A stretch of 64,000 nucleotides of DNA from Terriglobia bacterium (GCA_965215235.1 OZ244053.1:2471192-2535191), one strand, 5' to 3'. Counted from the stretch's first letter, positions 1-29,379 are shown. Made by a program: numbers and translations. The notes: generated by a model not told the origin, from the letters alone.

Positions 1-687
1 GGTTGATCTTCCCTCTCCCTTCCAAATCCTGGGCCAAGACTTTCAGCAGTCGATCCATGACACCAGATTGACGCCATTGTTGGAATCGACGATGACAGGT
101 CTGATAGGGTGGATAGCGAGGGGGCATCTCCGACCATTGGGCGCCGGTGCGCAATATCCACAGAATCCCGTTGAACACCTCCCGCGAATCTCGCCAAGGA
201 CGACCACGGCCGTCCGGCCGCTGGGGTAATTCGGGAAGCAGAGGTTTGATGAACGCCCACTGGGCGTCGGTAAGGTCTTGCGCCATGGAAATCTCCCATT
301 GTCTTCCTAACCAACTTCATCATGCTAACATCACTCTTTCGTATTTATGAGATGGCCTGTAGTCAAATTATCTCCGCCGTCTTGGTTGTGGGAAAATGGA
401 AAACTCGGAGAGTTTTCCAAGGTCGCGGAGATGCCGTCTTTTCCACAGCCTGTCTGGCTCGCCTGACCCTGCGTAAGCTCCCCCGTCAAGTAGACAGTTC
501 CGAACTGGAATTTTCTGGCAAGATAACTAAGGGAAGCTCTGATTAATCAGGGTTTCTGCGACCCAAGGGAGGCACCGCCCTGTTCAATGGCTGATAAGCT
601 GTTGAAAATGAAAGAAAAACAAAACCACGTTTTCCGGCTTCCGTGCTCTGAATAACTCATGGATGAGTTATTCAGAGCTCCCTAAGC

Positions 688-842
688 TAAGCGGTCGGCC
701 TGCGTCGATGTTCACTTTGTAAATCCATCCTCCAATGGACCCACCCCTACACCCCTCCCAAGAGGGGAATTATGTCGAGTCGATCCTACAAGAGGGGATT
801 TACACAATGACGGAGTGACATTGACCGAGGCCAGCCGCTTAG
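688..842. repeat. TIR element family A, copy 1 (about 155 bp; ~26 bp imperfect inverted termini 'TAAGCGGTCGGCCT..GTCGATGTTCA' / 'GACATTGACCGAGGCCAGCCGCTTAG')
   Basis: Inverted termini read directly. The same termini recur at 13843-14000, with a half copy at 15785-15812. The interior differs between copies. Confidence 0.6.
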
Positions 843-959
843 AAACCTCTGCATAACTCAAGGATCTGACCATCGAACACTATATGTAGTATGAGAACCA
901 TCAGAAACCTACTACATAAAGGGTTCAGTTTTAGCCAAACTAAGTTATGCAGAGGTCTC
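843..959. repeat. TIR element family B, copy 1 (about 117 bp; termini 'GAAACCTCTGCATAACT' / 'AGTTATGCAGAGGTCTC'; inner GTAG/CTAC palindrome)
   Basis: Perfect 13-16 bp inverted ends read in the sequence. A second copy with the same ends lies at 50381-50501. CGCTTAG abuts both flanks. Confidence 0.55.
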
Positions 960-974
960 GCTTAGAAGGTTCCG

Positions 975-1241
975 TTGAAACGTAGTCGATTCACCAAGAC
1001 CCGGATTGTCTCGATTCTGAAGGAGGCCGATGTAGTGGCGTCGGTGAAAGACATTTGCCGGCGCCAGGGCATTAGTCCGGCGAGTTGGTATCAGTGGAAG
1101 TCGGAGTCCGGCGGGATGGGAGCGTCTGAGCTGAAGAGGACCAAGGAGCTGGAGGCTGAGTTGGGTCAGATAAACTGCAGTTGCACGCCACTGCGCTGGG
1201 ACCACAGCTACAGGGCCTTGCTGGTAAACTCCGGTCCGTGA
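975..1241 (+). pseudogene. IS3-family transposase OrfA fragment (HTH N-terminus, truncated)
   Basis: Translation 'KRSRFTKTRIVSILKEADVVASVKDICRRQGISPASWYQWK...ELEAEL' matches IS3 OrfA HTH and leucine-zipper architecture. The C-terminus diverges and is truncated. Confidence 0.6.
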
Positions 1242-1546
1242 TCGGTGACGATGGCTTCTGGACAACCCCGCTCGAGAGTGAGTTGATCCAGCAGCCGGCT
1301 GACCCGTTCACCCCAGATTGAAAAGTCCATGATCGGGCCCACGCATTCCCGGCTGTAGTCGTCGACGATGTTAAGGATGCGGATATCATCGTCCTTCGCC
1401 ATCTGATCCGACATGAAGTCCATCGACCATCGCTGGTTCGGTCCGCTCGAAATCGGCAGCCGAACCCGATCCCCTGTCCACAGCCGTTTGCGCCGTTTTC
1501 TGCGAACTTGCAGGTTCTCTTCCCGATAGATCCCGATAGGTCTTAT
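1208..1546 (-). pseudogene. IS3-family transposase OrfB (DDE integrase) N-proximal fragment, opposite strand to the OrfA fragment
   Basis: Minus-strand translation 'YREENLQVRRKRRKRL...PNQRWSMDFMSD...DDYSRECVG...ERVSRLLDQLTLERGCPEAIVTDHGPEFTS' matches the IS3 OrfB core. It is truncated where it meets orfA and lacks its downstream catalytic half. Confidence 0.6.
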
Positions 1547-1606
1547 TTGCCTTCATGACCCCCCCCCCCCAACGGTCCGCTTCGAGAGTGGGTTTTCGGG
1601 TAAAGG

Positions 1607-2362
1607 TCAGCGATAGCTGTCTGCGGAGTCCCTGGGTTCGAATCCCACCATCTTCCGGGCGTGGGCCGTATCCCGGTAACTCAGTCTGTTTCTGGAAACG
1701 GCAAAGAAGATGTCATAGCGAAGGTCGTCCGGAGCCTCCAGGCAGCATTCCACCATGTGGGCGATGTCTCGCTGACTGCACCACACCGAGAACTCGCGGG
1801 CGCGGCGGGGTTGGTCCAGGCGATTGACCGCACCGATGCGGATACAGAGAATGGACAGATCCGAAGTGTCGGTGAAGTGCCGGGCCAGAACCTCGCCCCA
1901 GACCTTGCTGCAACCATACAATCCGCTCGGTCGTGGCGGTGACTCATGGGTCAGTTTATCCCAACTGGGCAGGGATGTCGGAGGCTGTTCCTGAACGAGG
2001 GCCTTGTAGGGCGGAATGGCTTCCCGGCCTGACACTGTGGCCCCGCTGCTGGCGTAGATGACCCGTTTGACGCCGGCGCGACGGGAGGCTTCGAAGACAT
2101 TGTAGGCGCCGATGACGTTATGGCGTAATATTTCCTCCCAGGGCGCACTGCCTGAAGCCAGAGCAGCCAGGTGCACGACGGCGTCCTTGCCTTCGAACGC
2201 CGGAAGAATCGAGCCGAGGTCTGAAATATCAGCCCGGTGACATTCCACTCCCGAGACCTCTCGGCGGTTCAGCGCGCTGAGTTCATACTTCTCACTGAGA
2301 TAACGATGCAGGATGCCGCCGATCAGACCGCTCATCCCTGTGACGAGTACCTTTCGAGCCAT
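1607..2362 (-). CDS. NAD-dependent epimerase/dehydratase (SDR family)
   Basis: N-terminal 'MARKVLVTGMSGLIGG' Rossmann motif and overall SDR epimerase-like sequence. ATG at 2362 is preceded by GGAGGGA. The longer six-frame ORF (to 2620) has an implausible N-extension. Confidence 0.75.
   Translation of the reverse strand: MARKVLVTGMSGLIGGILHRYLSEKYELSALNRREVSGVECHRADISDLGSILPAFEGKDAVVHLAALASGSAPWEEILRHNVIGAYNVFEASRRAGVKRVIYASSGATVSGREAIPPYKALVQEQPPTSLPSWDKLTHESPPRPSGLYGCSKVWGEVLARHFTDTSDLSILCIRIGAVNRLDQPRRAREFSVWCSQRDIAHMVECCLEAPDDLRYDIFFAVSRNRLSYRDTAHARKMVGFEPRDSADSYR
1617..1657 (+). other. tRNA 3'-end-like fragment (T-arm GGTTCGAATCC plus acceptor 3' strand), possible att-site remnant
   Basis: 'GGAGTCCCTGGGTTCGAATCCCACCATCTTCC' carries the canonical T-loop. 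No matching 5' acceptor strand or D-arm occurs upstream, so this is not a complete tRNA. Confidence 0.3.
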
Positions 2363-2667
2363 TCGGTTTCCTCCCTCTTGTTGCTGAATGGATTGTTCAG
2401 ACCGAGCCATTTTAGCCGATTGCCAGCCCGAACAGGGCGCCTGTTGTGAGGCGGCAGCCTTTGGCGGGCTCTTCCTGCGAGTTCTGGTCTGTCCTTGCCT
2501 CGGCATGGGCGCATCACTTTTCCCTTTGAGATGTGTTTGAACTTCGACTAAATTAGGGCCTGATCCGCAGGAATCCGGACTGGTCCTGGCCGAGCCGGTC
2601 AGGCCATGGCGGCGCCCCACTCCAGCACGGACCCTGACAAACTGAGCCGAAGGAGGAGGAATCGAGT

Positions 2668-3942
2668 ATGCCTGACCAGAATTGCTACACCGATGACTGG
2701 AAGCGGACTACCCCGGATTATGCAGTGTATCTGCAGAAGATTCCGGGGGAACGCGATGAGTATTCTGACCATATTCATGTGTTCTATACGCCCGGGGGCG
2801 ATCTCATGTGCCTGTGGACACAGGGATCTTATGAAAGTTCACTCGACCTGCGGGTGGTTTGCTCTCGTAGCAAGGATGGGGGAAAAACCTGGTCCCCGAT
2901 TGTCGCCATCGACGAGCCCAGGTACAAGAACATGGTCCCGGCCCTGGGATTTCCCCTCATCAGCCGCTCGGGACGCATCTACTGCCTCTACAACCAGCAC
3001 TTGGGTTACGGAGACGGGGGCCTCTATTCCGGACCGTTACGGGTGAAGTATTCCGATGACGACGGCCACACATGGGTCGCCGGCGGTGTGGATATCCCCT
3101 GGTGGCGGACCCGTTTCGACCACCCCGACCCCAAGGTCCACCCGACGGGCATCATTTGGCAGCAGCCCATCCGGGATGCCAGGGATCGCATGATCGTGGG
3201 GTTCACGCGTTGGAGCAGTCCTATGGCTTTTCCCCGACCCATTGGGGGCAATCGCAATCACTCCGACAGTGGCATTGAGTTCATGCGTTTCGAGAACGTT
3301 GATGAGGGTCCTCATCCCAAGGACCTTCAAATCACCTGGCTGCCGGACCAGGCCGGAACCGTTCGCGTCTCGCCGAACATCGAACCGGAAGCCTCTCGCG
3401 GCTATAGCTTGGCGCAAGAGCCCGGTCTGGTTCTTCTCCCTGACGGGCGCTTGTTCACCACCATGAGAACGGTGACCGGCTACATCTGGTACACCGTCTC
3501 CGACGACCACGGTCATAGCTGGCGGCCGACTCGGCCGTTGCTCTTTCGCGACAATGGCGCCAAAGTTGAGCATCCCAAATCGCCCGAGCCTTTGTATCGC
3601 TTGGCCGATGGCCGCTATCTGTTGTTCTTCCACAATCATTCCGGCTACCGCGACGGGGCTACGGGTCCCTGGGACATGGATGCTCGACGCCCCGTCTACA
3701 TCACCGTTGGAGAGTTCCGGCCTCAGGCGCAGCAACCGTTGTGGTTCAGCGAGCCGAAGTTTCTCTTTGACACCCAAAAAGTCACGGCCGGGGTGACCCG
3801 GCTCTGGTGGTTGGCCATGTACGCCAGTCTGACCGAACGTGATGGCCAGAGAACCTTCTGGTATGCCGACCGTAAGCAGTTTGTCCTGGGAAAGAACATC
3901 ACCGACGAAATGCTGGCCGACATGAAAGCACCGGAAGCTTGA
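2668..3942 (+). CDS. BNR/Asp-box repeat protein, sialidase-like glycoside hydrolase
   Basis: Three Asp-box motifs (SRSKDGGKTWSP, YSDDDGHTWV, VSDDHGHSWRP). GGAGGAAT lies upstream of the ATG. Confidence 0.6.
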   Translation: MPDQNCYTDDWKRTTPDYAVYLQKIPGERDEYSDHIHVFYTPGGDLMCLWTQGSYESSLDLRVVCSRSKDGGKTWSPIVAIDEPRYKNMVPALGFPLISRSGRIYCLYNQHLGYGDGGLYSGPLRVKYSDDDGHTWVAGGVDIPWWRTRFDHPDPKVHPTGIIWQQPIRDARDRMIVGFTRWSSPMAFPRPIGGNRNHSDSGIEFMRFENVDEGPHPKDLQITWLPDQAGTVRVSPNIEPEASRGYSLAQEPGLVLLPDGRLFTTMRTVTGYIWYTVSDDHGHSWRPTRPLLFRDNGAKVEHPKSPEPLYRLADGRYLLFFHNHSGYRDGATGPWDMDARRPVYITVGEFRPQAQQPLWFSEPKFLFDTQKVTAGVTRLWWLAMYASLTERDGQRTFWYADRKQFVLGKNITDEMLADMKAPEA

Positions 3943-4007
3943 GTGGCTTGGCGGCTCTCCATGCCCAGGGTCGCTTGGTCGGGTTCGGCTCCAAAGGAGG
4001 GGCAATT

Positions 4008-5840
4008 ATGACAAGTATGAAAAGACGGACCGCGGGTTACCTGTCGTTCAAGTGGCGACAGATGCTGATCTTCGTGGCAGCGGCTCTATGGATGGGCAAT
4101 TTCGGGCCACCGCGTCTCCCGGCTCAGCAGTCGGGCAAGAGTCCCAACGTCAGCCCGCAGCCCAAAGCGATTTACCTGACCGATCTTGAGAGATGCCAAC
4201 CGGCTTCCGCTTTGGCCCGGGAATGGACGCACGGTACTTGGCGCTTGCTCAGTTACGAAACCGAGTCTTTCAGTGGAAACCTGCTGTTGGCAACCGAAGA
4301 CAGCCGCGCTCCTGAGGTGACCTACCCGCTGCAGCAGGACGGTTGGCATGAAATCTATATCGGTATCTACCGCAAGCCCTTTACCGCTCCCAAACAAGTG
4401 CGGGTCCGTTTGAGCAACCATGTGGCCTACACCACCTTGAGGGGGCGTGAGGGCGCCAAGGATCATCAAGAGCACTGGATCGACGAAGTTTTCTGGAAGG
4501 CGGCCGATCTCACGGGAAAGGGAATGGTTTTCAAGCAGATCACCGAGCCGACCGTGGAGCACGCCTGGGTGGCCTTCATCAAGCTGGTGCCGCTGTCGGC
4601 GCAGCAAGTGAAATCGGTAGAGGACGACCGGCGGCGCTCCGACACCAAGCGGCTGTTTATCCATAATGACGCTGGGGTCATCAATCGGAGCGGGACCGAG
4701 CAGGAGATTCGCGATGTGCTCGAACCGCTGCGTCATTCCGACGTTTCCCGAGTTTACTGGGAAGGGGGCACGGGAGACCGGGCCAAGCGTTTTTCCAAAA
4801 TCGCCAGGGATCACTCATTGGAATTGACGGAGCCACTGACGGGTCGGCCGTTCTTTACCAGTCCTTACGGCCGGTGGTGGGCGGAGAGTTGGCGCGCCTA
4901 CCATCGGACCGGGGTGGACCCCTTCAGGATTGCCGCTGAATATGCGCACCAATTGGGACTTGAGTTTCACGCTGCCTACCGGCCGGGCGGCTTCATCTAC
5001 CCGCCGCCCAGTCCTCCCCTTCCCGGCCGAAGTTTTTATGAGCAGCATCCTGAACTCGTGTGCTTGTCTCGAGACGGCAAGCCGTTACCCCGTATTTCCT
5101 ATGCGTTCCCTGAAACCAGGCGGTACGTCCTGTCGCTGTTTCGTGAAATGGCGACCGACTATCCCATCGACGGAGTGGCAGTCCTCTACAATCGCCGCCC
5201 GCCGCTGGTGGCCTATGAGGCTCCGGTGGTTCAGGGATTTCAGGAAAAGTTCGGCAGGGACCCCCGCGAGCTTCCGGAAACGGATCCTCGCTGGTTGCGC
5301 TACCGCTCGCAGTTCCTGACTCAATTCATGAGAGAACTGCGCAGCGAGCTCGATCAGGTGGGCCGGGAGATGAAGCGGGAGAAGCGCCTCGAAATCACAG
5401 CCGTCGTTTCCAGGGGCGAGGAAAATCTGCTGTATGGGATGGACCTGGCGACCTGGATCAGCGAAGGTCTGGTGGATATGATCATTCCTTACTCCTCAGC
5501 CGTACGCCTGGGCGCCTATGAACCGATGTGGGAAAATCCCGAAGACGTCGACTGGTTTGTCTCCTTGGTGAAGGGAACCCGGACCCGACTGGCCTTGAAC
5601 CTCTTACCTCGGGACCTGACGGCGGAGGAATACTACCAGAAGGCGCACACTCTCTACCAAGCCGGAGTGGAGAACCTGTTCTTCTGGGACGGGACCCATC
5701 GGGTGCGGAAGGTCCTGCGACTGGGGCACCGTGAAGAAGTAGCGGCCTGGATGGCGTCCGGCCAGCCGCCGCGCCGGCCTTCCGCCGTTCGTGTATGGAA
5801 CCTCGGAGGCTGGAACTTGCGCCTGGAAACTCCGGGGTAG
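4008..5840 (+). CDS. Secreted hypothetical protein (signal/TM N-terminus 'MTSMKRRTAGYLSFKWRQMLIFVAAALWMG')
   Basis: Long ORF with AAGGAGG 7 nt upstream of the ATG at 4008. Good codon periodicity. No family recognised with confidence; it sits next to the sialidase-like gene. Confidence 0.55.
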   Translation: MTSMKRRTAGYLSFKWRQMLIFVAAALWMGNFGPPRLPAQQSGKSPNVSPQPKAIYLTDLERCQPASALAREWTHGTWRLLSYETESFSGNLLLATEDSRAPEVTYPLQQDGWHEIYIGIYRKPFTAPKQVRVRLSNHVAYTTLRGREGAKDHQEHWIDEVFWKAADLTGKGMVFKQITEPTVEHAWVAFIKLVPLSAQQVKSVEDDRRRSDTKRLFIHNDAGVINRSGTEQEIRDVLEPLRHSDVSRVYWEGGTGDRAKRFSKIARDHSLELTEPLTGRPFFTSPYGRWWAESWRAYHRTGVDPFRIAAEYAHQLGLEFHAAYRPGGFIYPPPSPPLPGRSFYEQHPELVCLSRDGKPLPRISYAFPETRRYVLSLFREMATDYPIDGVAVLYNRRPPLVAYEAPVVQGFQEKFGRDPRELPETDPRWLRYRSQFLTQFMRELRSELDQVGREMKREKRLEITAVVSRGEENLLYGMDLATWISEGLVDMIIPYSSAVRLGAYEPMWENPEDVDWFVSLVKGTRTRLALNLLPRDLTAEEYYQKAHTLYQAGVENLFFWDGTHRVRKVLRLGHREEVAAWMASGQPPRRPSAVRVWNLGGWNLRLETPG

Positions 5841-6029
5841 CCCGGCGGCTCCGCCGGGGCGCAGATACTGCCAACAGACCCCGGTCGGGCACAAAAGGCT
5901 CCCCGCCGTCTGGCTGTGGCAGTGAGCCTTTGATGGTGCAGAAGTGGGGTCAGGTTAACGCACCCATCTATCCGCTTTTAAAGTCAACTCCGCGCTCCAC
6001 GATAAACACCCTGCTTGGTCAATCGAGGT

Positions 6030-6403
6030 AAATCCCGGACCCCACCAGGATCGGTGCTCCGTAGGCCGTCACCCGCTTGACGAAGCCGATCTTGCGCTGC
6101 CAATTTCCTGTCACGGGATCAATCGCATTGTAGTGGAAAGAGGTCTCGCCGAACGTCATGGCCATGCTGATGACATCTCGGCCACTGAGAAACGTGGCGG
6201 GATCTGGCCCCCCCCCACTCGAGAAAGCTGGCTCCGTTGACGTTGCTTCGGTTTCCGGAGAACAGTTGGTTCCCTATCTGGTTCATGCCGAACAACCTGA
6301 CTGATAGGCATTGGGAACGAGTGTGGAACACCTTCTTGAAGAACCCGTTCCCAGAGCCGGCTAGGGCGTCGGTCCATCCTGCGTCCGGGGGACCTCGGGC
6401 CAT
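6030..6403 (-). pseudogene. C-terminal gene fragment interrupted by a C9 homopolymer (unknown family)
   Basis: Minus-strand translations on both sides of the 9-C run (6213-6221) join into a plausible about 150 aa C-terminal fragment '...FLEWGG/PDPATFLSGRDVISMAMTFGETSFHYNAIDPVTGNWQRKIGFVKRVTAYGAPILVGSGIYLD'. Confidence 0.2.
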
Positions 6404-6531
6404 AGGCCCGTGCGCGAGGTGGCGCAGATCGGGTTAAGGGCGATTGGCGGAGACGGAGATGGGATTGTCCCGTTGCCGTGGCAGTGGTAACATTCTACGA
6501 ACTCGAACACTGAGGATGAGGTGAAGGAGGC

Positions 6532-7581
6532 TTGAAGATGTCCGGCTCCAGCCGCAGATCGCTTCTCAGGAACGTTGGCCTGATCGCAGGGGCCATGGCT
6601 GTGGACTCCCCGATGGCCGCGTTTGCCCGGCCGAGACCCGGAGATTTGCCGGACATGGACCGGCTCAGAGAGCGCATTCAGGGAGTCCATGGCTTCATGG
6701 TCACGCCCTTTCAGCGCAATGGCCGGTTAGACGCCGATGGTCTGCGCCGCAACGTTGCCCACCATGCAGAGGCCGGGGCTCGAGACATGACGATCGTCGT
6801 GGGCGGTGGAATGGGCGAAATTTTCTCCCTGGACCTGGAAGAGCACAAGGCCATGGCGGTTGCTGCAGCGAGGGGCGCACAAGGGAAGCTTCCGGTAGTG
6901 GTCGGAGCTTGCGGTGGCTACCAAATGGCCAAGATCATGGCGCGCAACGCGGAGCAGGCGGGCGCCGATGCGATTCTCTTGTTTGCCCCGCCTTACTGGA
7001 ACTGGATTCCGGGATACGATGAGGGCGCCATTCGGTATTTCACCGAGGTGGCTGGGTCGATAAACATCGGCGTGTTGCTGGCGACGGTCTCCGGTCACAA
7101 CTTTCCGACGGGCAAGGAGCAGTATTGGCCGAAGGTTTTGAGCAAGCTAGCCGAGCTTCCCAACGTCATTGGGTTCGAGGATTCCAGCGGCGGCGTCGCC
7201 ATGGGGCAGCAGCTCGGGCCTCTGGTTGCCGACCGTTTGGTCTGGGTCGCCCGGGGTGAGGGTCATGCGGTTCGAGCGCTGCCCGCCGGGGCCCGCGGGA
7301 ACACTTCAGCGGTCGCCACTTTTGTCCCTGGGGCCTGCCGGGAGTTTTGGAGGCAGGGAAGGCTTGGGGAAGTTGCCCGGATGAAGGAAATCCTGGAGAC
7401 GCGGATCCATCCCATGGCTCGGGTGAGAGCGGTAAAGCCGGGCTACCACGTGAGCGGGATCAAGGTTGCCTTGGAAGCATTGGGCCGAGCCGGCGGTCCG
7501 GTCAGGCCCCCGGGAAGACCCGTCTCGACCGAGGATCGTCCCAGGATCGCTACTATCGCCCGCAAATATGCCGAGACTTGA
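6532..7581 (+). CDS. DapA/NAL-family (dihydrodipicolinate synthase-like) protein with twin-arginine signal peptide
   Basis: N-terminal 'SRRSLLRNVGLIAGAMA' Tat motif. The core resembles class I aldolase DapA family (GGGMGEIFSL, PVVVGACGG, FAPPYW, NVIGFEDSSGG). The usual Schiff-base Lys position appears to be F/E. Confidence 0.5.
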   Translation: MKMSGSSRRSLLRNVGLIAGAMAVDSPMAAFARPRPGDLPDMDRLRERIQGVHGFMVTPFQRNGRLDADGLRRNVAHHAEAGARDMTIVVGGGMGEIFSLDLEEHKAMAVAAARGAQGKLPVVVGACGGYQMAKIMARNAEQAGADAILLFAPPYWNWIPGYDEGAIRYFTEVAGSINIGVLLATVSGHNFPTGKEQYWPKVLSKLAELPNVIGFEDSSGGVAMGQQLGPLVADRLVWVARGEGHAVRALPAGARGNTSAVATFVPGACREFWRQGRLGEVARMKEILETRIHPMARVRAVKPGYHVSGIKVALEALGRAGGPVRPPGRPVSTEDRPRIATIARKYAET

Positions 7582-7619
7582 GGGTTGCCGGTGGTTCCAT
7601 AGGGGAATGAGCGCAGATT

Positions 7620-9605
7620 ATGAACTGGATATCTCCTGAAGCCAAAAAATCAAGCGTCGGGGTTGATAGTGCTTCCCGGAGTAGCCTCGTCATCCTGGTC
7701 TCGACACTGCTTGCCTTCCTGTTGCCTGCTCATTTCATAGCCCAGGAAACTTCGTCTGCGATGCCAACGGAACCGGAAGTCGACTGGATCTTTCCCCTGG
7801 GAGGTCAGCCGGGCGGTCACTGGCAAGCGGAAGTTGAGGGCCGGTTGCTGGACGAAGTCCATGGGGTCTGGTTCCCCAACCAGGGCCTGAAGGGTAAGAT
7901 ACTGGAAGTTCGAGAGCTGCTGACCGAAGAGAAGAAGACTGAACCGGATGAGTCCGGGGCCGAGGAAAAGCCGCGGACTCAGCGAGTCTCACTCCATCTG
8001 GAAATCGATCCGACGGTCCGGTCAGGGATCCATTCGCTGCGACTGGTGTCGAAACGGGGGGTTTCTAATTCCTTGACCTTTCTGGTCAGTTCGGAACCCG
8101 TCATCAAAGAGTCCAAGAGCGCCCATCAGAAGCCCTCCGAGGCGCAGGCGGTCAAGCACCCGGTCATCATCAACGGCAGGATTGCCCAAACGGGCGAGGT
8201 GGATTACTACGCTGTCGCGGTTTCTGCCCGGGAAGAACTTTCTTTCGAACTCTTCACTCCAGCCGAGACCTTTCGACCCACCATCAGGCTGTACGAGGAA
8301 AGGGGAAGCTGGTTGAGGGGGGATGAGCCCAGCCAACTGGAGTTCAGTTATCGGGATGACTATCGATCGTCTCGGGGGAAGCGGTGGCGTCATCGCTTCA
8401 GCCGGGCCGGGCGTTATCTGATTGCCCTGGGGTCCGTCTACGGTAAGGCTGAGCCTGGCTTTATCTACCAGCTTCGAATCGTGTCTGCTGAACGATCGTC
8501 GGCAAAAGGGGAATGGCCCGGTTCCGAGGGACAGGCCCAATGGAGCGAACGGCAGTATGTTCGAAAACTGACGCCGCTCAGGTTGCAGCAGCTCTGGTCG
8601 CGCACCGTCAAAGCCCCCCGGAATCTTCCTCGGGCCAAGGTCACCCAAAGGTCGGCAAATCAGCCTGAGGAGAACGCTGCCAAGCAAGACGTTTCCAATC
8701 CTGGTTCTGATAACGGCAATTCGTCGCCAACGGTCTCCGCAGAAAAAGAACCCAATGGAGAACGCACGCAAGCCCTGACGGTATCGCTGCCCGCTCTCGT
8801 CCGGGGCAGGATCGAAGCTCCCGGGGACGTCGATCTCTTTCAGTTCCAACTGCCGGCGAGACAGTCTCTGGTTTTTGAAGTGGAGACTCCCTATGTGTCG
8901 CCGCCCAGCTTCAGTCCCAGCGTCAAGGTCCTGGACTCTGAGGGTCACGAGCTGTTCAACAACAAGCACAGGAAGATTGCCCTGACCCGGCAAGATCCCA
9001 TCTTTCTGGTGGAGCTTCTCAAGCTTCATCTTCCTGACAGGGGAAGCTGCGGCGTGGGATCCGTTTCCTTTTTTGAGTCGTTGGAAGCTAAAATGGTGGC
9101 CGACTTCGCGGTTGCCGGACAGTACTACCTGCAGATCGGTGACGTCACCTCTCAAAAAGGCCACCCGGACTATGCCTATCGGGTCATGGTTCGACCGCGG
9201 ATTCCTCATGTGGGAGAGCTGGAGCTTGAGGGGGACCGCATCAACCTCCGGCAAGGGGAGGTCAAGAAGCTGAAGATCACCACGGGCTTGGAAGAAGGCT
9301 ATGCCGGCGACGTTGCCCTGAGTCTTGAGGGCCTCCCGCCAGGAGTGGTCCCTTTGACCGGTATGGAAGTGGAGCCCGGAAGCCCGATCGGTCCCACCAC
9401 TGACGGACAGGAAAAATTTCTGGCCTTCACCGAAAAAGCCATCATCTTGTTGCGCGCCGAGGAGAATGCGCCGCTGACTGAAACACCGGTGCTGATCCGG
9501 GTATGGGCGCGGCCTGCCATGAAAAATGAGTTGGGGGCCAAGCTGCTGGTCGGCGAGATTCCGCTCATGGTCATCATCTCCCGGGATCAACCCCAAGAAT
9601 CCTGA
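7620..9605 (+). CDS. Secreted hypothetical protein with two pre-peptidase C-terminal (PPC)-like domains
   Basis: N-terminal TM/signal sequence. Segments 'INGRIAQTGEVDYYAVAVSAREELSFEL' and 'LVRGRIEAPGDVDLFQFQLPARQSLVFEV' match the PPC-domain pattern. Confidence 0.5.
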   Translation: MNWISPEAKKSSVGVDSASRSSLVILVSTLLAFLLPAHFIAQETSSAMPTEPEVDWIFPLGGQPGGHWQAEVEGRLLDEVHGVWFPNQGLKGKILEVRELLTEEKKTEPDESGAEEKPRTQRVSLHLEIDPTVRSGIHSLRLVSKRGVSNSLTFLVSSEPVIKESKSAHQKPSEAQAVKHPVIINGRIAQTGEVDYYAVAVSAREELSFELFTPAETFRPTIRLYEERGSWLRGDEPSQLEFSYRDDYRSSRGKRWRHRFSRAGRYLIALGSVYGKAEPGFIYQLRIVSAERSSAKGEWPGSEGQAQWSERQYVRKLTPLRLQQLWSRTVKAPRNLPRAKVTQRSANQPEENAAKQDVSNPGSDNGNSSPTVSAEKEPNGERTQALTVSLPALVRGRIEAPGDVDLFQFQLPARQSLVFEVETPYVSPPSFSPSVKVLDSEGHELFNNKHRKIALTRQDPIFLVELLKLHLPDRGSCGVGSVSFFESLEAKMVADFAVAGQYYLQIGDVTSQKGHPDYAYRVMVRPRIPHVGELELEGDRINLRQGEVKKLKITTGLEEGYAGDVALSLEGLPPGVVPLTGMEVEPGSPIGPTTDGQEKFLAFTEKAIILLRAEENAPLTETPVLIRVWARPAMKNELGAKLLVGEIPLMVIISRDQPQES

Positions 9606-9664
9606 GAGGTCTTTCTTCCTGGGGTGGAGTCGTCATCTCGCAGCCCAATAGATGTTCAATCGGA

Positions 9665-11921
9665 GTGGTTGCAATGAAGAGTGTTCGATGGATGCCGGTT
9701 CTGGGAATCCTGTTGATTTCGGTTCCCGGCTTCGCCACCTCGGGAATCGCTGTCGAAGGCGCGGATCAAGCCGAACCTTTTGATTTCTCCCGGGACGTCG
9801 TCGGGGTCTTGACGCGCAACGGGTGCAACGGTAGTGAATGCCATGGCGGGGTCAAGGGACGCGGGGGCTTCAAGCTGTCGTTGCATGGAATCAATCCCAG
9901 GGAGGACTACCGCTGGACCGTCAAGGGCGGGATTTACCAGGTGCTATCCCCTGAGGCCGCGGAACCGTTTCGTCCTCGAGTGAACCTCGAAGAGCCGGAG
10001 CAAAGTCGCTTGCTCCTGAAACCCACCCTGAGGTTGCCCCATGGGGGCGGGCAGCGCTTCGAGCCGGGCTCAGCCGATTACCGGATTCTGCTGGATTGGA
10101 TTCGCCAAGGGGCTCCTTACGAAGCGGACGGCCAGGCGCCGTCTCGAATCGAGCGGCTGGAGGTTTTCCCCGGAAAGGTGATCGTGGAACCGGAGGCTCA
10201 GCGGAAGCTCCGGGTGACCGCTTACTTGTCGGATGGCCGAACGGAGGACGTCAGCCCCGAGGTGCTTTATGAAACCAGCGATCCCCAGGTGGTTTCCGTT
10301 GGCTCCACCGGCTTGGTCCGCGCGCTGAAACCGGGGCAGGCAATCGTCACCGTGCGAGCCGCTGGAAAGCTGGTTCATGTCCGATGCGGAGTCATTCGGG
10401 GCCCGGTCTCGGATTATCCGGAGGTCGTCAAGCACAATTTCATTGATGACCATGTCTTTGGGCGACTGCGGAAGCTGCATATTCTTCCGGCGGCTCTGGC
10501 AAGCGACTCGGCCTTCTTGCGGCGAGTCTGTCTCGATCTGACGGGGACCTTGCCGCCGCCTGATCGGGTGCGGGAATTCCTCGCTGACCGGAACCCTCGG
10601 AAACGAAAACATCTGATTGAACAATTGCTGAACTCGCCCCGATATGCCGACTATTGGACCTTCCGCTTCGCCGACTTTTTTCGAGTGGTCTATCGGAACG
10701 CTTATACCTACAAAGGTTGGATTCGACAAAGCCTGGCTCGGAACAAACCCTATGATCAAATGGCCCGGGAGCGCGTGGCGGCCCAGGGCAACGGGGGGGC
10801 CACGCGACATTTTATCAAGTCGGTCAGCGGGGAGGTCATGCTGCCGCACGAGAAAATGGGTGAGGACGTTCGAGTCTTCCTGGGTATACGGTTGGACTGC
10901 GCTCAGTGTCATGACCACCCCTACGAAACCTGGACCCAGGATCAGTTCTGGGGGATTACGGCCTTCTACGGCCAGTTGACTCGAATCAGGAACCTCTCCG
11001 TCTTCATGGACGATTCCGCCGGCAATGGTGAGCGGCCGGAAGGGTCTCGGGTGATTCATCCCCGTCGCAGGCAGGAGGTGGCTCCCAGGTTTCTGGACGG
11101 CTCGGTTCCGCCGACGATTGGTAATAACCCGCGGGAGCGATTGGCGGACTGGATGACGGCGCCGGGCAATCCTTACTTTGCCCAAGCCATCGTCAACCGG
11201 GTATGGGCTTACTTTTTCGGAAAGGGTTTCGTAGAGCCGGTGGACGATTTCAGGCCCGGTAACCCCCCGACCCATCCCGAGTTGCTGCAGGGCCCTGGCG
11301 GAGGATTTCCGGCGGAGCGGCTATGACCTCAAGCATCTGATGAGAGTCGTTGCTCAATCCAGAACCTATCAGTTATCCGGAGATCTCAATGAGACCAACC
11401 AGGAGGATGAGATCAACTACTCCAGGGCTCTGCCGCGCAGGTTGGATGCTGAGATCCTGCTGGATGCCATCTCTGACGTGACCGGCGTCCAGGAGACGTT
11501 CCCGGTCCACGACTACGTGGGCGGGGGGACGGAGCCCCTGGGAACCCGAGCCATTGACCTGGTTCCTGAAGTGACGCCTTCCCAATTTCTGGAAGTTTAC
11601 GGGAGACCTATCAGCCGAGACAGTATGCCGTGGCGTGACCGCCGATCCACCCTCAGGCAGGCGCTGCACCTGCTGGTTGGCTCCACTTACACCACCAAGA
11701 TTTCGGCGGAAGGCGGCAGGGTCGATCGCCTCTTGGCCCGCGGCGCCTCCGACCGGGAGATCGTTGAAGAACTTTATCTGGCGGCTTTTTCCCGGTATCC
11801 GACCGCTGAAGATAAAGCGGGGCTCGAAGCCTTGATGGAAAAATCCTCTTCGCGCAAGAAAGGCATCGAGAACCTGGCCTGGGGGTTGCTCGCCTCTCGG
11901 CAGTTTACCTATAATCACTAG
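9665..11921 (+). CDS. PSCyt2/DUF1549-DUF1553 (PSD) family protein, split by an apparent +1 G insertion at about 11287
   Basis: Signal peptide, then '[11 protein letters not shown]' and '[11 protein letters not shown]' (DUF1549). Downstream '[19 protein letters not shown]' (DUF1553) lies in the next frame. Removing one G from 'CAGGGCC' restores '...[24 protein letters not shown]...'. Confidence 0.8.
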
Positions 11922-11977
11922 CCAGGCATCAACCGAACTCAGGGGGTTTCATACGGACAGGGGTCAGAGGATGTTTT

Positions 11978-12178
11978 ATGAAACTCAAGGTCGTCATACA
12001 TGAAGCAGAAAAAGGCGGGTACTGGGCTGAAGCGCCGTCTATTCCTGGTTGCGCCACACAAGGCGATACCTTTGATGAACTATTGAGCAACCTATACGAA
12101 GCTGTTGAGGGCTGCTTGTCTGTGGATGTTCAAGATATTGACCTATCAAAAGATAAGGTTATGGAGATAGCCGTTTGA
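11978..12178 (+). CDS. hicB: HicB-family antitoxin (UPF0150)
   Basis: '[44 protein letters not shown]' is the canonical HicB fold signature. The region is AT-rich. Confidence 0.8.
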
Positions 12179-12180
12179 AG

Positions 12181-12380
12181 ATGGTTAGCGGCAAGAAATT
12201 TTGCCGTTTTCTCGAAGGCAAAGGATGGGGCTGAAGCGAATTAACGGAAGCCATCATATCTATACCAAGACAGGCATTGATGCTCGTATTTCACTACCAG
12301 TGCCTGGAAGCAAACCGTTAAAAACAGGTTTGCAAAGGTATCTGATGAAAGTCGCGGGAGTTGAAGAATCCGACTTGTAA
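12181..12380 (+). pseudogene. hicA: HicA toxin, frameshifted (1-bp deletion in a GGGG run)
   Basis: 'MVSGKKFCRFLEGKGWG*' then the next frame gives 'LKRINGSHHIYTKTGIDARISLPVPGSKPLKTGLQRYLMKVAGV' (HicA RNase core). Its ATG overlaps the hicB stop. Confidence 0.7.
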
Positions 12381-12480
12381 TCATCGCCTGAAAAGGTGCT
12401 GTACTGGACGACAATTCCGTTGCGCTTCATTGGCCGCCGGTGAGTTTGGTCAGGTATTTGGGCAGATAAAGGATACGCTT

Positions 12481-13816
12481 ATGAAAGAACTTGCCGATCA
12501 TGTTCGATGCTGCCAACCCCGTCGGGAATTCCTCAGAATCGGCTCTCTGAGCCTGCTGGGTCTGAGCCTCAGGCAGTACCTGGAACTGGAAGCCGCCACC
12601 CCGACTACCGTCGGTTCGAGGCAAAAAGCCCAGGCTTGTATTCTTCTGTGGCTGGAGGGTGGTCCCTCTCAGATCGACACTTGGGACCCTAAGCCCCATA
12701 GCCGGTTCAAGGCCATCCCGACCCGGGCCGACGGCGTTCGGATCTCGGAACTCTTCCCTCGGATCGCCGGGCACATGGACAAGTTGGCGATTGTGCGCTC
12801 CATGCACACCGAGGAGAACAACCACCCGCAGGGCACTCACTATGCCTTGACGGGTCATCGACCCAATCCGGCCTTGAAATTTCCCAGTCTGGGTTCGATC
12901 ATCTCCAAGGAGCTGGGCGCTCGGAACAACCTTCCCCCCTACATCATGGTGCCGGAGCACCACGAGAGCGATTTTTTCTCCTACGTCGATGCCTACACGG
13001 CGGCTTTCCTGGGTTCGGAATACGATCCGATTATCCTTCCGGATCCGAGCCAGGAATCCTTTCACATTCCGGATCTGTCTCTGCCGGATACGCTGTCGGC
13101 TGCGGATATTGCGAATCGCCGGTCGTTTCTGGGGGTCGTGGATCGGGCGTTCCGTCAAAAAGAAAAGAACGCCGAGTTCGGCAAAATGGACCGTTTCACC
13201 AACCAGGCCCCTGACCATGCTGCTTTCGCCGAGTGTCAAGCAAGCCTTCGACCTCTCCCAGGAGTCCGATAAAACCAAAGAGGCCTACGGACGCACGCGA
13301 GTCGGCCAGAGCGTTCTCCTGGCTCGCCGCCTGGTTGAAGCCGGTTGCCGGTTTGTGACCACCTCCGGTTACACGCACGGCGCCTGGGATACCCACAAGG
13401 ACAATGACCAGGTCCTTCGGGACAAGCTGGCGCCGACCCTGGACCAGACGCTTTCCGCCTTGCTGGAAGATTTGCAGCAACGCGGGTTGCTGGAGTCCAC
13501 CGTGGTTCTGGCCATGGGCGAGTTCGGTCGCACCCCTCATCTGAATGCCAACAACGGGCGGGATCATTATCCGGATTGTTGGTCGGTACTGCTGGGCGGA
13601 GGGGGTATTCAGGGAGGGCGAGTCGTGGGCGCCAGTGATGATCAGGGAGCCCAGGTGGCCGAACGGATGGTCACCATGGGAGACCTCTTCGCCACTATTT
13701 ACAAGGCCATGGGCATCGATTGGACCAAAGCCTACGTCAACCCCGGCGGGCGACCGCTTTACATCGCAAACTCCATTGACGACGTCATGGGGCAGCCGTT
13801 GAACGAACTGGTGTAG
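12481..13816 (+). CDS. DUF1501 family protein (Tat signal), split by an apparent +1 C insertion at about 13210
   Basis: 'RREFLRIGSLSLLGL' Tat motif plus 'LLWLEGGPSQIDTWDPKP' DUF1501 signature. The C-terminal half continues in the +1 frame; deleting one C from 'GGCCCCT' joins them. It pairs with the upstream DUF1549/1553 gene. Confidence 0.8.
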
Positions 13817-13842
13817 TCCGCAGAACTCCCGCACCTTCCGCC

Positions 13843-14000
13843 TGAGCGGTCGGCCTCAGTCGATGTTCCCTTCACGAATTCACACTCGCCCTCTCCCATC
13901 GAGAGAGGGAAGGATTGCCAAGCGGCGAACCAGTTTTTAACTCCCGTCCAATTACGTCTGTCCAATGACGGTGTAGCATGAACCGAGGCCGACCGCTTAG
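13843..14000. repeat. TIR element family A, copy 2; its terminal CGCTTAG supplies the vapC stop codon
   Basis: Termini 'TGAGCGGTCGGCCTCAGTCGATGTTCC' / 'CATGAACCGAGGCCGACCGCTTAG' are inverted repeats matching copy 1. The interior is unrelated to copy 1. Confidence 0.6.
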
Positions 14001-14410
14001 GCAGGCTCTTCCCATACCTCAACGATTAAACCTGGGACACGGGTAAACTCACGGGCGTTGGCCGTGACCATGGTCAGACCGTGGGCAAGACCCGTGGCTG
14101 CAAGCCAGAGATCGTTTGGCCCAATCATCTTGCCGGCTGCCGTCAGCTCTGCCCACACTTGCGCATGGGCTCGGGCGGTCGCCAAATCTATCGGCAACAG
14201 GGGAAAGCGCTCCAGCAGCGCTTCGACAAAGGCCGAACGCTTCGCTCGAACCTCCGGCTGCACTGCACGATGCACTCCGTGGAGGAGTTCGCTCGCTGTG
14301 ACCACTGAGAGAAAGAACTCTTCCTGTTGTCGCTGTGCGAGATGACGCTGCAGATTGAGACGCCCCCGCTCGTATTCGATCAGGATACTGGTATCAATCA
14401 AGACTGCCAC
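13997..14410 (-). CDS. vapC: VapC PIN-domain toxin
   Basis: 'MAVLIDTSILIEYERG...' PIN fold with conserved acidic residues. Overlaps the upstream antitoxin gene. Confidence 0.8.
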   Translation of the reverse strand: MAVLIDTSILIEYERGRLNLQRHLAQRQQEEFFLSVVTASELLHGVHRAVQPEVRAKRSAFVEALLERFPLLPIDLATARAHAQVWAELTAAGKMIGPNDLWLAATGLAHGLTMVTANAREFTRVPGLIVEVWEEPA

Positions 14411-14676
14411 GGGTCGTGGCCCTCCGCCCGAGCGAGCGCCTCCCGAGCCGCCGTGAGGTCGTCGGCAAGTTGCGTGGCTTCGGTTGGGGAGAGATGGGGA
14501 AGCGACGCCAATAGCGCAGGGAGTTCCGCAAGCCGTTTCCCCGCAGGAAGCGGGCGGAGTTCCGCCACGGGTTTATTGCCACGCACGAGTACAAAACATT
14601 CGCCACGATAGGACACGCGGTTGATGTACTCCGCGAAGTGACGAGCTACTTCAGTAACGGAGAGTGCCTGCGCCAT
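14398..14676 (-). CDS. vapB: Phd/YefM-type antitoxin (VapB partner)
   Basis: 'ALSVTEVARHFAEYINRVSYRGECFVLVRGNKPVAELRP' is typical of Phd/YefM. Has a 13-nt overlap with vapC. Confidence 0.75.
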   Translation of the reverse strand: MAQALSVTEVARHFAEYINRVSYRGECFVLVRGNKPVAELRPLPAGKRLAELPALLASLPHLSPTEATQLADDLTAAREALARAEGHDPWQS

Positions 14677-15262
14677 CAGAGATTCTCCATGAAAACCTGA
14701 AAATCATATTATCTGATTTCAATCTCGACGTCCACCAACTCCCCCCAAACGCCGAGCACGGTAGCTCAGGATCGAGAGGCCTGATGTGGAACCTGCCACT
14801 CCTACCGTTGGACATTCGCGCTGCTCCGGTTGTTGTAGATCCGTATAAGGTCCTCACCTCACGCGATTGCAGTGAGGTTGTCCGCGCCCTTACTGCAATC
14901 CGTGCAGCTGGTTGTTGGCGTCCGTCGGTCCATCAGACTCCAAACACCTCATTCGTCCAGTCGTCATTCTGCGGAAAGGACCCGTGGATCGACTTGTAGC
15001 AGCCCTTGCTCGACACGACCCGCATCATGTCCCGAAGAACTCAGTCAGCGTAAATACGCTTGTCGCCGGGATCGATCTCCTGCGCGATCCCGATGGCTCG
15101 GATCTCCATATTGGGTGAGCCTTGCCCAAGCATCCGCTTGATCGCGATGCGGTCTTCGGCTTGAATCTGAGTCGCGACGACGCGCCCAATGGTTTAATGT
15201 GGTGAGCCTCGGAGCATCGTGCGCCATCGGGCGGTTCAATCGCGGTACGGCAAATCCGACAT

Positions 15263-15776
15263 TTATTGATTGTGATGCAACTCTTTGATGAGGCGCGCCA
15301 GTGTCGTATCGCGGACAGTACGGATAGTTGTGATTGAGATTCGAGTTGCCGAGAGCGGTTCGATATCAGAGGGCTGCAATCCTAAATTATCATGCCGCAG
15401 TGCGACCCATCCAAGATGTTCCAGTGCGGTTGCGGCTTGTGGGTGCATTACCCATAAAAAACCCGTCGGGATGCGAACAGCCGGACGACCATACGCGCCA
15501 CCAACTAGGGTAGCCATCAGGACGTTTGTCAAGGGCCAAGCCGGTTTCATCACAGAACATGCGACCAAGCCGCCCGTAATGCAAGTTTGCTACAGAATAA
15601 CCGCCGGTGATTTCGGCGAGCTCGGCAAGTTTCGGCGACGTCGCCGTTCGATGTGGCGCAGCGTATTGCGATTGGAAAAGACGCCGTTGGATGCTATTCA
15701 TGCGATCCCGTACCGCGCGTAATCCGGCGACATATTCGTCGGCAGCGGGAATGTTCGCGAGTGTGCATTCACGCAA
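15263..15776 (-). CDS. Hypothetical protein, two ORFs joined across an A/T6 homopolymer frameshift
   Basis: ORFs 15390-15776 and 15263-15568 overlap. Changing one base in the homopolymer or the adjacent CCC joins 'RMNSIQRRLFQSQYAAPHRT...' to '...AATALEHLGWVALRHDN...IKELHHNQ'. No family recognised. Confidence 0.35.
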
Positions 15777-15784
15777 TTGACGGT

Positions 15785-15812
15785 GTGGTATGAACCGAGG
15801 TCTCCCGCTTAA
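15785..15812. repeat. Half copy (right TIR only) of family A element; its CGCTTAA supplies the Fe-ADH stop codon
   Basis: 'GTGGTATGAACCGAGGTCTCCCGCTTAA' matches the right terminus of copy 2 ('GTGTAGCATGAACCGAGGCCGACCGCTTAG'). No partner terminus was found within 200 bp. Confidence 0.45.
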
Positions 15813-25554: not shown

Positions 25555-27600
<2,046 letters not shown>

Positions 27601-27676
27601 AGAACAAGACGACAGCTTGAAACTTCAACTGGCTAGACTTATAATCTAGCCAAATTCATCCTGGGTGGAGGCGAGT

Positions 27677-28344: not shown

Positions 28345-28382
28345 TTCACGATGCCTCAAATCGGCCGTTGGGAGGACGCACG

Positions 28383-28965: not shown

Positions 28966-29020
28966 TGGAGAACAATCCGCCAACCCTCAGCCGCGAGATT
29001 GACGCCCTTCTGGAGGAAGA

Positions 29021-29266: not shown

Positions 29267-29270
29267 TGAA

Positions 29271-29379
29271 GATGACCCTCCTCACTGCCCAGTGGCGGGA
29301 GCAGCAGACAGAAGCCGTGAGGCTCAGTGCCGCCATTGCGGTCAATCTTAAGAGCCTTACCTTTGGAAAGCTCTGTTGA
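29271..29379 (+). pseudogene. Duplicated, diverged hsdM 3'-end remnant ('[37 protein letters not shown]')
   Basis: Aligns with the real hsdM C-terminus at 27496-27600 ('[34 protein letters not shown]'). The 20-nt 'CCCAGTGGCGGGAGCAGCAG' is identical. Confidence 0.65.

Follow-up and report, generated by a model that had tools for sequence, protein, structure and literature searches.

A probable mobile element family with conserved inverted ends overlaps stop codons without supplying them in a planctomycete genome

Inverted repeats that end exactly on the stop codons of genes raise the question of whether they provide those stops, serve the genes as a 3'-end signal, or have merely landed there. 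The window analysed here, a stretch of 64,000 nucleotides numbered from its first letter, contains such repeats, and a sequence-only reading had described them as a family (Family A) sitting at gene 3' ends and donating the stop codon through the termini CGCTTAG or CGCTTAA. Either a REP-like terminator or mRNA-stability module, or a site-specific insertion preference for stop codons, was offered as the interpretation. In our follow-up, the repeats and their overlap with two stop codons held up, but the heptamer as a signal, the placement of one copy and the donation of stops did not; of the two interpretations, an insertion preference was supported but the terminator or stability module was not. 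Small, mobile and non-coding, Family A has so far been seen in one planctomycete genome only, and it is of a rather ordinary kind, a new family of a known class that is no source of stop codons for genes. With a probability of about 0.6, we regard it as a lineage-restricted, non-autonomous family of DNA transposons (type II MITEs, conserved at their ends only) that duplicates TA upon insertion and has a composite derivative. Two full copies and one further end were found in the window:

690-839, plus strand: Family A copy 1, 150 nt, with TA flanks at 688-689 and 840-841, amid IS debris and at no gene end.
13845-13997, plus strand: Family A copy 2, 153 nt, lying between TG (13843-13844) and TA (13998-13999), its last base being T13997.
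15778-15809, plus strand: Family A solo right end, with 85% identity to its counterpart in copy 2; the following TA (15810-15811) is part of the Fe-ADH stop codon.

The family is defined by its ends. About 28 nt on the left and about 38 nt on the right are conserved (79-92% identity across 28-38 nt), and the outer 17-26 nt are inverted repeats starting with 5'-AGCGGTCGGCCTC. In copy 2, the terminal inverted repeats (TIRs) have arms of 26 nt that are 85% complementary and give a perfect 17-bp basal stem in the predicted fold, copy 1 being similar. A 16-nt motif from the ends matched the window 8 times against 1.8 expected, a count reached in none of 100 shuffles. The solo right end has no left-end partner nearby. 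The interiors of copies 1 and 2 show no detectable relation (128 of 500 shuffles scored at least as high as the observed alignment), as the sequence-only reading had noticed; its view that this is unusual for MITEs was wrong, however, since conservation limited to the TIRs is precisely what defines type II MITEs (PMC10969869). Family A shows this defining property, which places it in a descriptive class that stands for no lineage and gives no information on the transposase. The sole open reading frame overlapping a full copy, of 53 aa on the minus strand (712-873), spans most of copy 1 and was taken as spurious. The heptamer CGCTTAR itself occurs at chance frequency (8 matches, 7.6 expected), and only four of those eight fall on Family A termini; another, at 959-965, arose when a different element, Family B, made a short duplication of the copy 1 terminus. 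Family B adjoins copy 1 together with IS3 and IS5 fragments.

The stop codons in question belong to two genes:

13997-14410, minus strand: vapC, a PIN toxin of 137 aa (Pfam PIN, E = 1e-16), with a stop TAA that reads from 13999 to 13997.
15809-17014, minus strand: Fe-ADH gene, 401 aa, with a stop TAA that reads from 15811 to 15809, at the native position.

Both stops appear on the plus strand as TTA (13997-13999 and 15809-15811), made up of the terminal T of the element and the TA that flanks it; T13997, which closes copy 2, pairs with the third base of the vapC stop. Ten vapBC loci of relatives, in three genomic contexts, represent the empty site: Family A is absent after the vapC stop and the sequence reads GCC-TAG-cgtgtctgt. 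The window reads GCC-TA followed by AGCGGTCGG, and the 93% nucleotide homology to the relatives stops at 13998, a breakpoint exactly after the TA of the native C-TA-G stop. VapC homologues are nearly all 137 aa long. Likewise, Fe-ADH orthologues are 401 aa long and have stops of their own, which in relatives are TAA, TAG, TAG and TGA. Since the same codon is already a stop in relatives that lack Family A, both stops are native, and at vapC the element supplies the third base only, turning TAG into TAA. To speak of stop codon donation is thus an overstatement. Similarly, the location at gene 3' ends applies to copy 2 and the solo right end, which overlap the TAA of vapC and of Fe-ADH, but not to copy 1.

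What remains is the choice of target. TA is found on either side of copy 1 and next to the solo end, and copy 2 lies between TG and TA; of the targets that can be reconstructed from a sample of three events, two are C-TA-G. Within the window, TA is about 2-fold depleted (1299 occurrences, 2682 expected) and CTAG about 15-fold (15 against about 234). The candidate harmless TA sites comprise 278 intergenic TAs and 22 TAA or TAG stops, and by our own arithmetic, which assumes uniform use of such sites, two of three events falling at stop codons amounts to only p ~0.015. Most simply, the pattern suggests a preference for TA or CTAG and not for stop codons as such, the association with stops arising because TA and CTAG are scarce in a genome of 59% GC and stop codons make up a big share of the harmless sites. 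The proposed preference for stop codons is supported in substance: the junction lies inside the TA of a native C-TA-G and copy 1 has TA on both sides, but the simplest preference is the broader one.

Insertion of Family A at TA would be the work of a transposase acting in trans, for which the most plausible candidate is one of the IS630/Tc1-mariner type, whose elements duplicate TA (PMC2170065). Because the element begins with A, a TA-specific insertion into a TAG or TAA stop would rebuild TAA and be silent at the protein level; with the gene product unaltered, the insertion would survive, and this, in combination with the scarcity of TA and CTAG, could produce the association with stops. Family A would then be a worked example of a mobile element that ends up on stop codons without providing them, and a warning against inferring function from position, given that rare TA and CTAG in GC-rich genomes can alone give a functional-looking 3'-end bias. 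Against this, with only five ends available, the TA flanks could also be the outermost bases of the TIRs instead of a target duplication, and one of the flanks is TG. Within the window, no transposase with matching ends and no IS630-family IS with matching TIRs was found, the sole remnants being IS5- and IS3-family fragments that have different ends. Searches of GTDB representative genomes, JGI metagenomes, IMG/VR and plasmids, and of about 300 kb from the loci of relatives, gave no further copy of Family A.

The solo right end and copy 2 also delimit a larger unit, whose parts and one neighbour are as follows:

12361-13816, plus strand: DUF1501 gene, interrupted by a frameshift near 13,250, with the stop TAG at 13814-13816.
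13845-15809, plus strand: 1,965-bp composite resembling a cassette, in which the copy 2 left end and the distal solo right end enclose passenger DNA.
13998-14746, minus strand: vapBC module, 93% identical in nucleotides to the vapBC of relatives at other loci, the homology ending at the stop TA.
14398-14676, minus strand: vapB, a Phd/YefM-type antitoxin of 92 aa, based on PhdYeFM_antitox (E = 9.2e-06; 25.8 bits, under the Pfam cut-off of 29.8 bits) and on the gene order in relatives.
15184-15776, minus strand: HNH endonuclease pseudogene covering aa 1-200 of 262, with two frameshifts and a deleted 3' end.

Copy 2 was reported to start 27 nt past the DUF1501 stop, which agrees with the distance of 28 nt from 13845, or 26 nt when counted from the TG flank at 13843. 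In sister genomes, the DUF1501 and Fe-ADH stops are 15 nt apart, and in the window about 2 kb lies between them. The unit is absent from this spacer in six loci of the closest relatives, which makes it, like copy 2 at vapC, a presence/absence polymorphism, and each limit of the ~2-kb insertion has a Family A terminus in the correct orientation no more than 12 nt away. Between the inverted ends there are 1.97 kb with vapBC and the broken HNH nuclease gene, and no transposase. The start codon of the HNH pseudogene directly borders the solo right end on its inner side; an intact homologue (P0243, 79% identity over residues 1-107) matches Pfam HNH_2. The conserved 3' flank of vapBC is missing beyond the copy 2 left end and anywhere else in the window, which is predicted if the unit moved from the left end to the distal right end. 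MITE pairs are known to mobilise intervening DNA (PMC4133298), and here any left end together with any right end, in the correct orientation, could move the DNA lying between. In the order of events that we infer, the composite unit would have landed where DUF1501 and Fe-ADH converge with a very short spacer between them, on the Fe-ADH stop or next to it.

There is a rival for this junction, as the composite is flanked by TG and TA at its Family A termini, but a perfect 7-bp repeat is also present, once 12 nt outside the left terminus and once 8 nt inside the right one:

13826-13832, plus strand: CTCCCGC, first occurrence of the 7-bp direct repeat, which is either another candidate for the target duplication or a match by chance.
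15802-15808, plus strand: CTCCCGC, second occurrence of the repeat; it is here, at 15802 and not at 15810, that BLAST alignments to relatives set in again.

The 2-kb block 13833-15801 might thus have come via a 7-bp-duplicating mechanism unrelated to Family A, or the relatives might have lost the block by slippage between the CTCCCGC repeats; in both cases the Family A ends would have been carried as passengers, and the half copy's final 10 nt would be native spacer. Besides the repeat itself and the point where homology resumes, this agrees with the spacer of one relative (L054), TAA-gtgggag, when set beside TAA-gcgggag in the window. However, it leaves unexplained why both boundaries are within 12 nt of oriented Family A termini, for which the chance is ~1e-5 with five ends in 64 kb. 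It also needs an extra event, as the 12 nt outside the copy 2 left end do not match the vapBC 3' flank, and the block has no terminal inverted repeats beyond ACCT/AGGT. The 7-mer match, moreover, is not very improbable, considering that the spacer is internally repetitive (GCGGAAGGT next to GCGGGAGTT) and that TIR positions 6-9 vary between ends. We consider this origin unlikely. Just as improbable, in our judgement, is the more ambitious proposal that Family A is a stop-codon-homing cargo transposon, targeting C-TA-G or TA, with a terminal A at both ends so that TAG or TAA becomes TAA, and routinely capturing small defence and toxin-antitoxin modules and moving them between gene 3' ends. If true, stop codons would be safe landing sites, which is more than a MITE surviving there by chance.

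Under the terminator interpretation, Family A would be a host-maintained REP/REPIN-like hairpin, a transcription terminator or a 3'-end mRNA stabiliser, kept at gene ends. Folding of the full elements, which had been suggested as a check, does predict hairpins of very high stability (-71 to -75 kcal/mol, with z between -6.0 and -7.2; copy 1, -71.3 kcal/mol, z = -7.2), and copy 2 lies between convergent genes, directly past the vapC stop. Such stability is automatic given inverted repeats, however, and no U-tract or T-run follows the hairpin on either strand. The one site that a terminator scan returned, weak and with 5 bp, is internal to copy 2 and not shared by copy 1; no terminator-like feature is common to the copies, and no Rfam match to Family A was obtained. 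The half copy at Fe-ADH cannot form the hairpin, copy 1 comes after no gene, and sister genomes do without the element at the same genes. REPs are units of 20-40 bp, individually palindromic and with a GTAG or CGTC head (PMC3733652), whereas the Family A ends are not self-complementary and have no consistent head of this kind; a RAYT gene, which along with more than 100 copies per genome is expected of REP/REPIN elements, was not seen among the scanned ORFs. A host function of this type is therefore very unlikely.

We hold equally little of a reading in which a cassette system, of the integron attC kind or similar, recombines at the ends: a site-specific recombinase would capture co-oriented defence and toxin-antitoxin cassettes (HNH, vapBC), and the site would start at the stop of the preceding gene. 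Toxin-antitoxin cassettes are typical of chromosomal integrons. Like Family A, attC sites have imperfect inverted repeats around a centre that varies, follow mobile genes at their 3' end and often contain the stop codon. Further points in favour of this reading are that conserved ends go with variable interiors, that Fe-ADH, HNH and vapBC are all on the minus strand, that the HNH start adjoins the inner edge of the half site, and that AGGT-CTCCCGC-ACCT would make a small symmetric core in a circular junction. The core sites differ, though: the termini are CTAAGCG/CGCTTAG (CTAAGCGG and CCGCTTAG) and not R'' RYYYAAC / R' GTTRRRY. The predicted fold is a continuous 17-bp duplex stem without the unpaired central spacer or extrahelical bases of attC, and copy 1 has symmetric mismatches only. 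Nor is there an array, as only 2.5 sites occur in 15 kb, with 13 kb of conserved syntenic chromosomal genes between them. Copy 1 has no cassette, the block neither contains nor adjoins a recombinase gene, and no integrase was found among the examined ORFs. Chance similarity with coincidental stop overlap, to which the heptamer frequency and the small number of loci (three) might point, is scarcely credible and effectively refuted as regards the repeats, given the length and identity of the shared ends, the enrichment of the 16-nt motif and the exact vapC breakpoint.

Among known elements, Family A as a transposon family most resembles RUP of Streptococcus pneumoniae and other IS630/Tc1-mariner MITEs (ISY100, IS630), which are likewise small (~100-150 bp), non-coding and bounded by TIRs with TA flanks. 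RUP also folds as a long hairpin, tends towards IS-rich junk and intergenic DNA, and is, with IS630-Spn1, the precedent for a MITE mobilised by an IS630-type transposase (PMC2229807). For Family A, in contrast, it is the TA flanks that suggest this link, no such transposase or IS with matching ends having been found; the ends are unrelated in sequence, and the interiors are wholly different where RUP copies are similar throughout. The Correia/NEMIS elements of Neisseria share the TA-flanked inverted repeats, the intergenic position near genes and the co-transcribed hairpins (PMC2229807), but their sequences are unrelated, they belong to another phylum, and Family A has no known IHF site or RNase III processing.

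The finding opens no new biological principle. It provides, for a planctomycete, an example of a small MITE-bounded unit that would have brought its passengers, a nuclease gene and a toxin-antitoxin pair, in between two convergent genes only 15 nt apart, and it is useful for annotating such genomes and for grasping how defence and toxin-antitoxin modules travel. MICs and solo IRs are precedents (PMC3129680), and MICs and other MITE-bounded composites (TIME mosaics, the qnrS2 MIC) also have inverted IS-type ends around passengers, lack a transposase and are present or absent as a block (PMC3129680, PMC4133298, PMC5444012). The Family A composite differs from them in having a complete MITE at one boundary and a solo right end at the other, and in its junction duplication, which is TG/TA or 7 bp. 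Its passengers differ as well, being a toxin-antitoxin pair and a dead nuclease gene, while those of MICs are resistance genes.

Family A, an inverted-repeat family, is present in the window as two full copies and a third right end, as the sequence-only reading had held:

690-839: Family A copy 1, flanked by TA (688-689) and TA (840-841)
13845-13997: Family A copy 2, with left flank TG and right flank TA
15778-15809: a third (solo) Family A right end, the half copy

The left end reads AGCGGNNNRCCTNNGTCGATG and the right end CAATGACGGNGTNNNATNNACCGAGG. The left ends have ~28 nt in common (AGCGGTCGGCCT..GTCGATGTTC), the three right ends ~38 nt (CAATGACGGNGT...AT..ACCGAGG.C..CCGCT), and the outer 17-26 nt of left versus right ends form inverted repeats. 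A 16-nt end motif gave 8 matches versus 1.8 expected, a count reached in none of 100 shuffles; the 7-mer CGCTTAG/A, singled out earlier, has no enrichment of its own (8 matches versus 7.6 expected). The interiors of copies 1 and 2 have no detectable kinship (alignment score equalled or beaten in 128 of 500 shuffles) and the sequence inside the 38-nt end differs among all three right ends; the interiors behave as filler or cargo. Unrelated interiors had been considered unusual for MITEs; this is contradicted by the type II MITEs, which are conserved only in their TIRs (PMC10969869) and to which Family A is nearest in structure. Because the ends are inverted repeats, each full copy folds as a long hairpin (-71 to -75 kcal/mol, z -6.0 to -7.2); at gathering thresholds, Rfam gave no match for Family A. 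A C/G-rich hairpin lies mid-interior in both copies (CCCCTCCCAAGAGGGG in copy 1, CCCTCTCCCATCGAGAGAGGG in copy 2), and two similar CCCTCTCCC...GGGAGAGGG hairpins are found at 26793-26813 and 27172-27192, bracketing a segment of ~360 nt. These hairpins may represent a separate short palindromic repeat.

Pfam assignments placed DUF1501 on the plus strand (stop TAG at 13814-13816) and the PIN-domain VapC, the Phd/YefM-type antitoxin (a match under Pfam's own cut-off) and Fe-ADH on the minus strand. At both the vapC stop (13997-13999) and the Fe-ADH stop (15809-15811) the plus strand reads T-TA, in which T is the final base of the element and TA belongs to the flank, and therefore the gene-strand stop consists of the flank TA plus an A from the element. 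VapC homologues from many taxa are nearly all 137 aa long. Ten vapBC loci in related genomes, in three genomic contexts, end ...GAGCCTGCC-TAG-cgtgtctgtctgcgccgaa, versus ...GAGCCTGCC-TA|A-GCGGTCGGCC in the window, and the 93% nucleotide homology of the window vapBC to those loci breaks precisely at 13998. Since the relatives end in TAG at this point and the homology stops there, copy 2 lies within the TA of a native C-TA-G vapC stop, converting TAG to TAA. The Fe-ADH orthologues are 401 aa long, as is the window protein, and in element-free genomes this codon is a stop of the gene's own (TAA, TAG, TAG or TGA); the Fe-ADH stop is native under either junction model (TA or 7-bp, see below). With native stops in element-free relatives, the stop codon donation attributed to Family A is reduced to one nucleotide of an existing stop. 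The placement of the elements at gene 3' ends holds for copy 2 at vapC and for the half copy at Fe-ADH, and fails for copy 1, which follows no gene and has as neighbours a hairpin derived from Family B (a second repeat family), a Family B element, and IS3 and IS5 debris. An insertion preference, offered as the alternative reading, agrees with the junction within the TA of the native vapC stop. Taken together, the original observation is partly confirmed and its interpretation partly supported, as regards insertion preference and not donation or a terminator role.

In the closest relatives (Fe-ADH at 91% protein identity, flanking genes at 88-90% nucleotide identity), DUF1501 and Fe-ADH are convergent, with stops 15 nt apart (TAG-tttgcacgctcccac-TTA); in the window, 1,992 bp separate them. 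On the DUF1501 side, 28 nt past the stop, the inserted DNA opens with the copy 2 left end; on the other side it closes with the solo right end, which lies on the Fe-ADH stop. Inside, besides the remainder of copy 2, are:

13998-14746: vapBC module, present in relatives at other loci
14747-15183 (437 nt): stretch between vapBC and the HNH pseudogene, with no recognisable coding or repeat content
15776 down to 15184: HNH endonuclease pseudogene (aa 1-200 of 262), with two frameshifts and the 3' end missing

An intact HNH homologue (P0243) has 79% identity across residues 1-107 and matches Pfam HNH_2. The word-index homology search returned no match for a 128-aa ORF, which exhaustive HMMER searching assigned to an HNH nuclease N-terminus. 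The HNH start codon adjoins the inner edge of the conserved solo right end, for which no left-end partner was found within 14,700-15,800. In the relatives, at least three unrelated contexts contain vapBC, at ~89-93% nucleotide identity (loci L060, L061, L124-L130 and L138), with limits ~70-90 nt before vapB and ~20 nt past the vapC stop; the module therefore moves as a unit of its own, by some route that does not involve Family A. The DUF1501 gene (12361-13816) consists of two overlapping ORFs (12361-13272 and 12989-13816), with a frameshift near 13,250, and is also split in one relative assembly (L052), which could be due to a pseudogene or to a long-read homopolymer error.

We propose that, at a donor locus, a Family A MITE would have inserted in the TA where vapC stops, that the left end of this MITE would later have acted as a pair with a distal right end, and that the intervening segment would then have moved to the DUF1501/Fe-ADH spacer, at a TA at or beside the Fe-ADH stop. 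Movement of the whole segment would explain why the left end of copy 2 borders the target spacer and not the conserved vapBC 3' flank, and why this flank, sought across the window as the reciprocal product of a recombination between copies, was absent. Movement by those two ends would likewise explain why both boundaries of the insertion fall on correctly oriented Family A termini, the chance of which we estimate at ~1e-5 (five ends in 64 kb). In its make-up, the 2-kb unit corresponds to a mobile insertion cassette or MITE-bounded composite (PMC3129680, PMC4133298, PMC5444012). The exact junction in the spacer has a second candidate, as a perfect 7-bp direct repeat, CTCCCGC, is present at 13826-32 and 15802-08, and BLAST homology to the relatives picks up again at 15802, not 15810 (beside the Fe-ADH stop, TAA-gtgggag in a relative versus TAA-gcgggag in the window). 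This match could have arisen by chance, considering that repeats occur within the spacer itself (GCGGAAGGT|GCGGGAGTT) and that end positions 6-9 vary over the five ends (TCGG, CTGG, GAGA). Alternatively, the block could have been inserted with a 7-bp duplication, or the relatives could have lost it via slippage between the 7-bp repeats. We favour the TA junction over the 7-bp one, since it takes fewer events and agrees with the other Family A junctions.

The window has a GC content of 59%, and contains 1,299 TA dinucleotides versus 2,682 expected and 15 CTAG sites versus ~234 expected. Based on a rough gene set (278 intergenic TAs, 22 genes with TAA or TAG stops), a TA-specific element surviving only at harmless sites would meet a stop codon in ~7% of insertions, so that two of three events correspond to p ~0.015, conclusions on target choice being drawn from n=3 insertion events. 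Targets of the CTAG type are found at vapC (GC-TA-GG) and copy 1 (GC-TA-GA). By the same gene set, the 15 CTAG sites include 2 stop codons and 3 intergenic sites; of the latter, the one at 6361 terminates a 109-aa ORF whose standing is doubtful. Stops therefore make up about half of the harmless CTAG sites and, if Family A prefers CTAG, a stop-codon association is expected. Given that both termini start with A, TA+A remakes TAA from either side; this terminal A may be due to chance (one in two for A or G), or be part of why insertions persist.

The terminator or mRNA-stability module suggested by the sequence-only reading has no support: there is no U-tract downstream of the hairpin, whichever way it is read, no terminator-like feature is common to the copies, the Fe-ADH half copy is unable to fold into a hairpin, copy 1 lies behind no gene, and the corresponding genes in sister genomes lack Family A. 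The predicted hairpin may have a by-effect on the vapBC transcript. As for other identities, attC, REP/REPIN and intrinsic terminators each fail the defining features tested; an IS5- or Harbinger-type duplication of 3 or 4 bp was rejected, as the flanks (TAA/TTA, CTAA/TTAG) are inverted, not direct, and so were Tn3-type 38-bp ends, with no GGGG terminus and no 5-bp duplication. In behaviour, Family A is nearest to MITEs that duplicate TA, for example RUP, mobilised by a transposase of the IS630 family (PMC2229807; mechanism, PMC2170065). As neither a transposase nor an IS matching it turned up, Family A is only a candidate member of an IS630-mobilised family; Pfam identified no transposase partner in ten further window ORFs. 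Exact-pattern scans with the Family A ends covered 185,579 GTDB representative genomes (51 matches), JGI metagenomes (none and 58 matches in two scans) and IMG/VR, all matches being single chance or coding ones from which similarity did not extend. BLAST with both full copies against PLSDB plasmids returned no matches, and the relatives' loci (~300 kb) contained no Family A. We regard Family A as a narrowly distributed new element of known type, with a small cargo-carrying derivative.

Other mobile DNA is found elsewhere in the window. Family B, with ends GAGACCTCTGCATAAC, lies at 842-959, 50381-50501 and 643-682. One copy is inserted in Family A copy 1, at the right terminus, and the 5-7-bp direct repeat of this insertion (GCTTA / CGCTTAG) made the extra CGCTTAG at 959-965; a second adjoins a small HigBA-like gene pair, and a ~40-nt derivative consisting of the two ends only forms a perfect 16-bp hairpin (645-678) immediately left of copy 1. 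The left terminus of copy 1 (681-690) carries a tandem CTAAG duplication (cc-CTAAG-CTAAG-CGG), the mirror of the CTTAG struck by Family B at the right terminus, which may be an excision footprint or a residual target duplication. The first 1.6 kb of the window is mobile-element debris with no counterpart in relatives, including:

1-286, minus strand: IS5-family transposase N-terminus (DUF4096, NCBIfam transpos_IS5_3), continuing past the window's left edge
975-1238, plus strand: IS3-family orfA fragment
1211-1423, minus strand: rve fragment

At 43800-46100, about nine diverged direct repeats of 42-48 nt, irregularly spaced within large minus-strand ORFs, are consistent with a repeat-domain protein gene with no relation to the Family A finding. 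Finally, 24999-38793 is a 13.8-kb insertion in comparison to sister genomes, in which ~220 nt lead from the PspA-cluster genes to the MR_MLE gene. Within the insertion lie Methylase_S (30408-31706), the specificity subunit of a type I restriction-modification system, and several further ORFs without a Pfam match, and it looks like a defence island.
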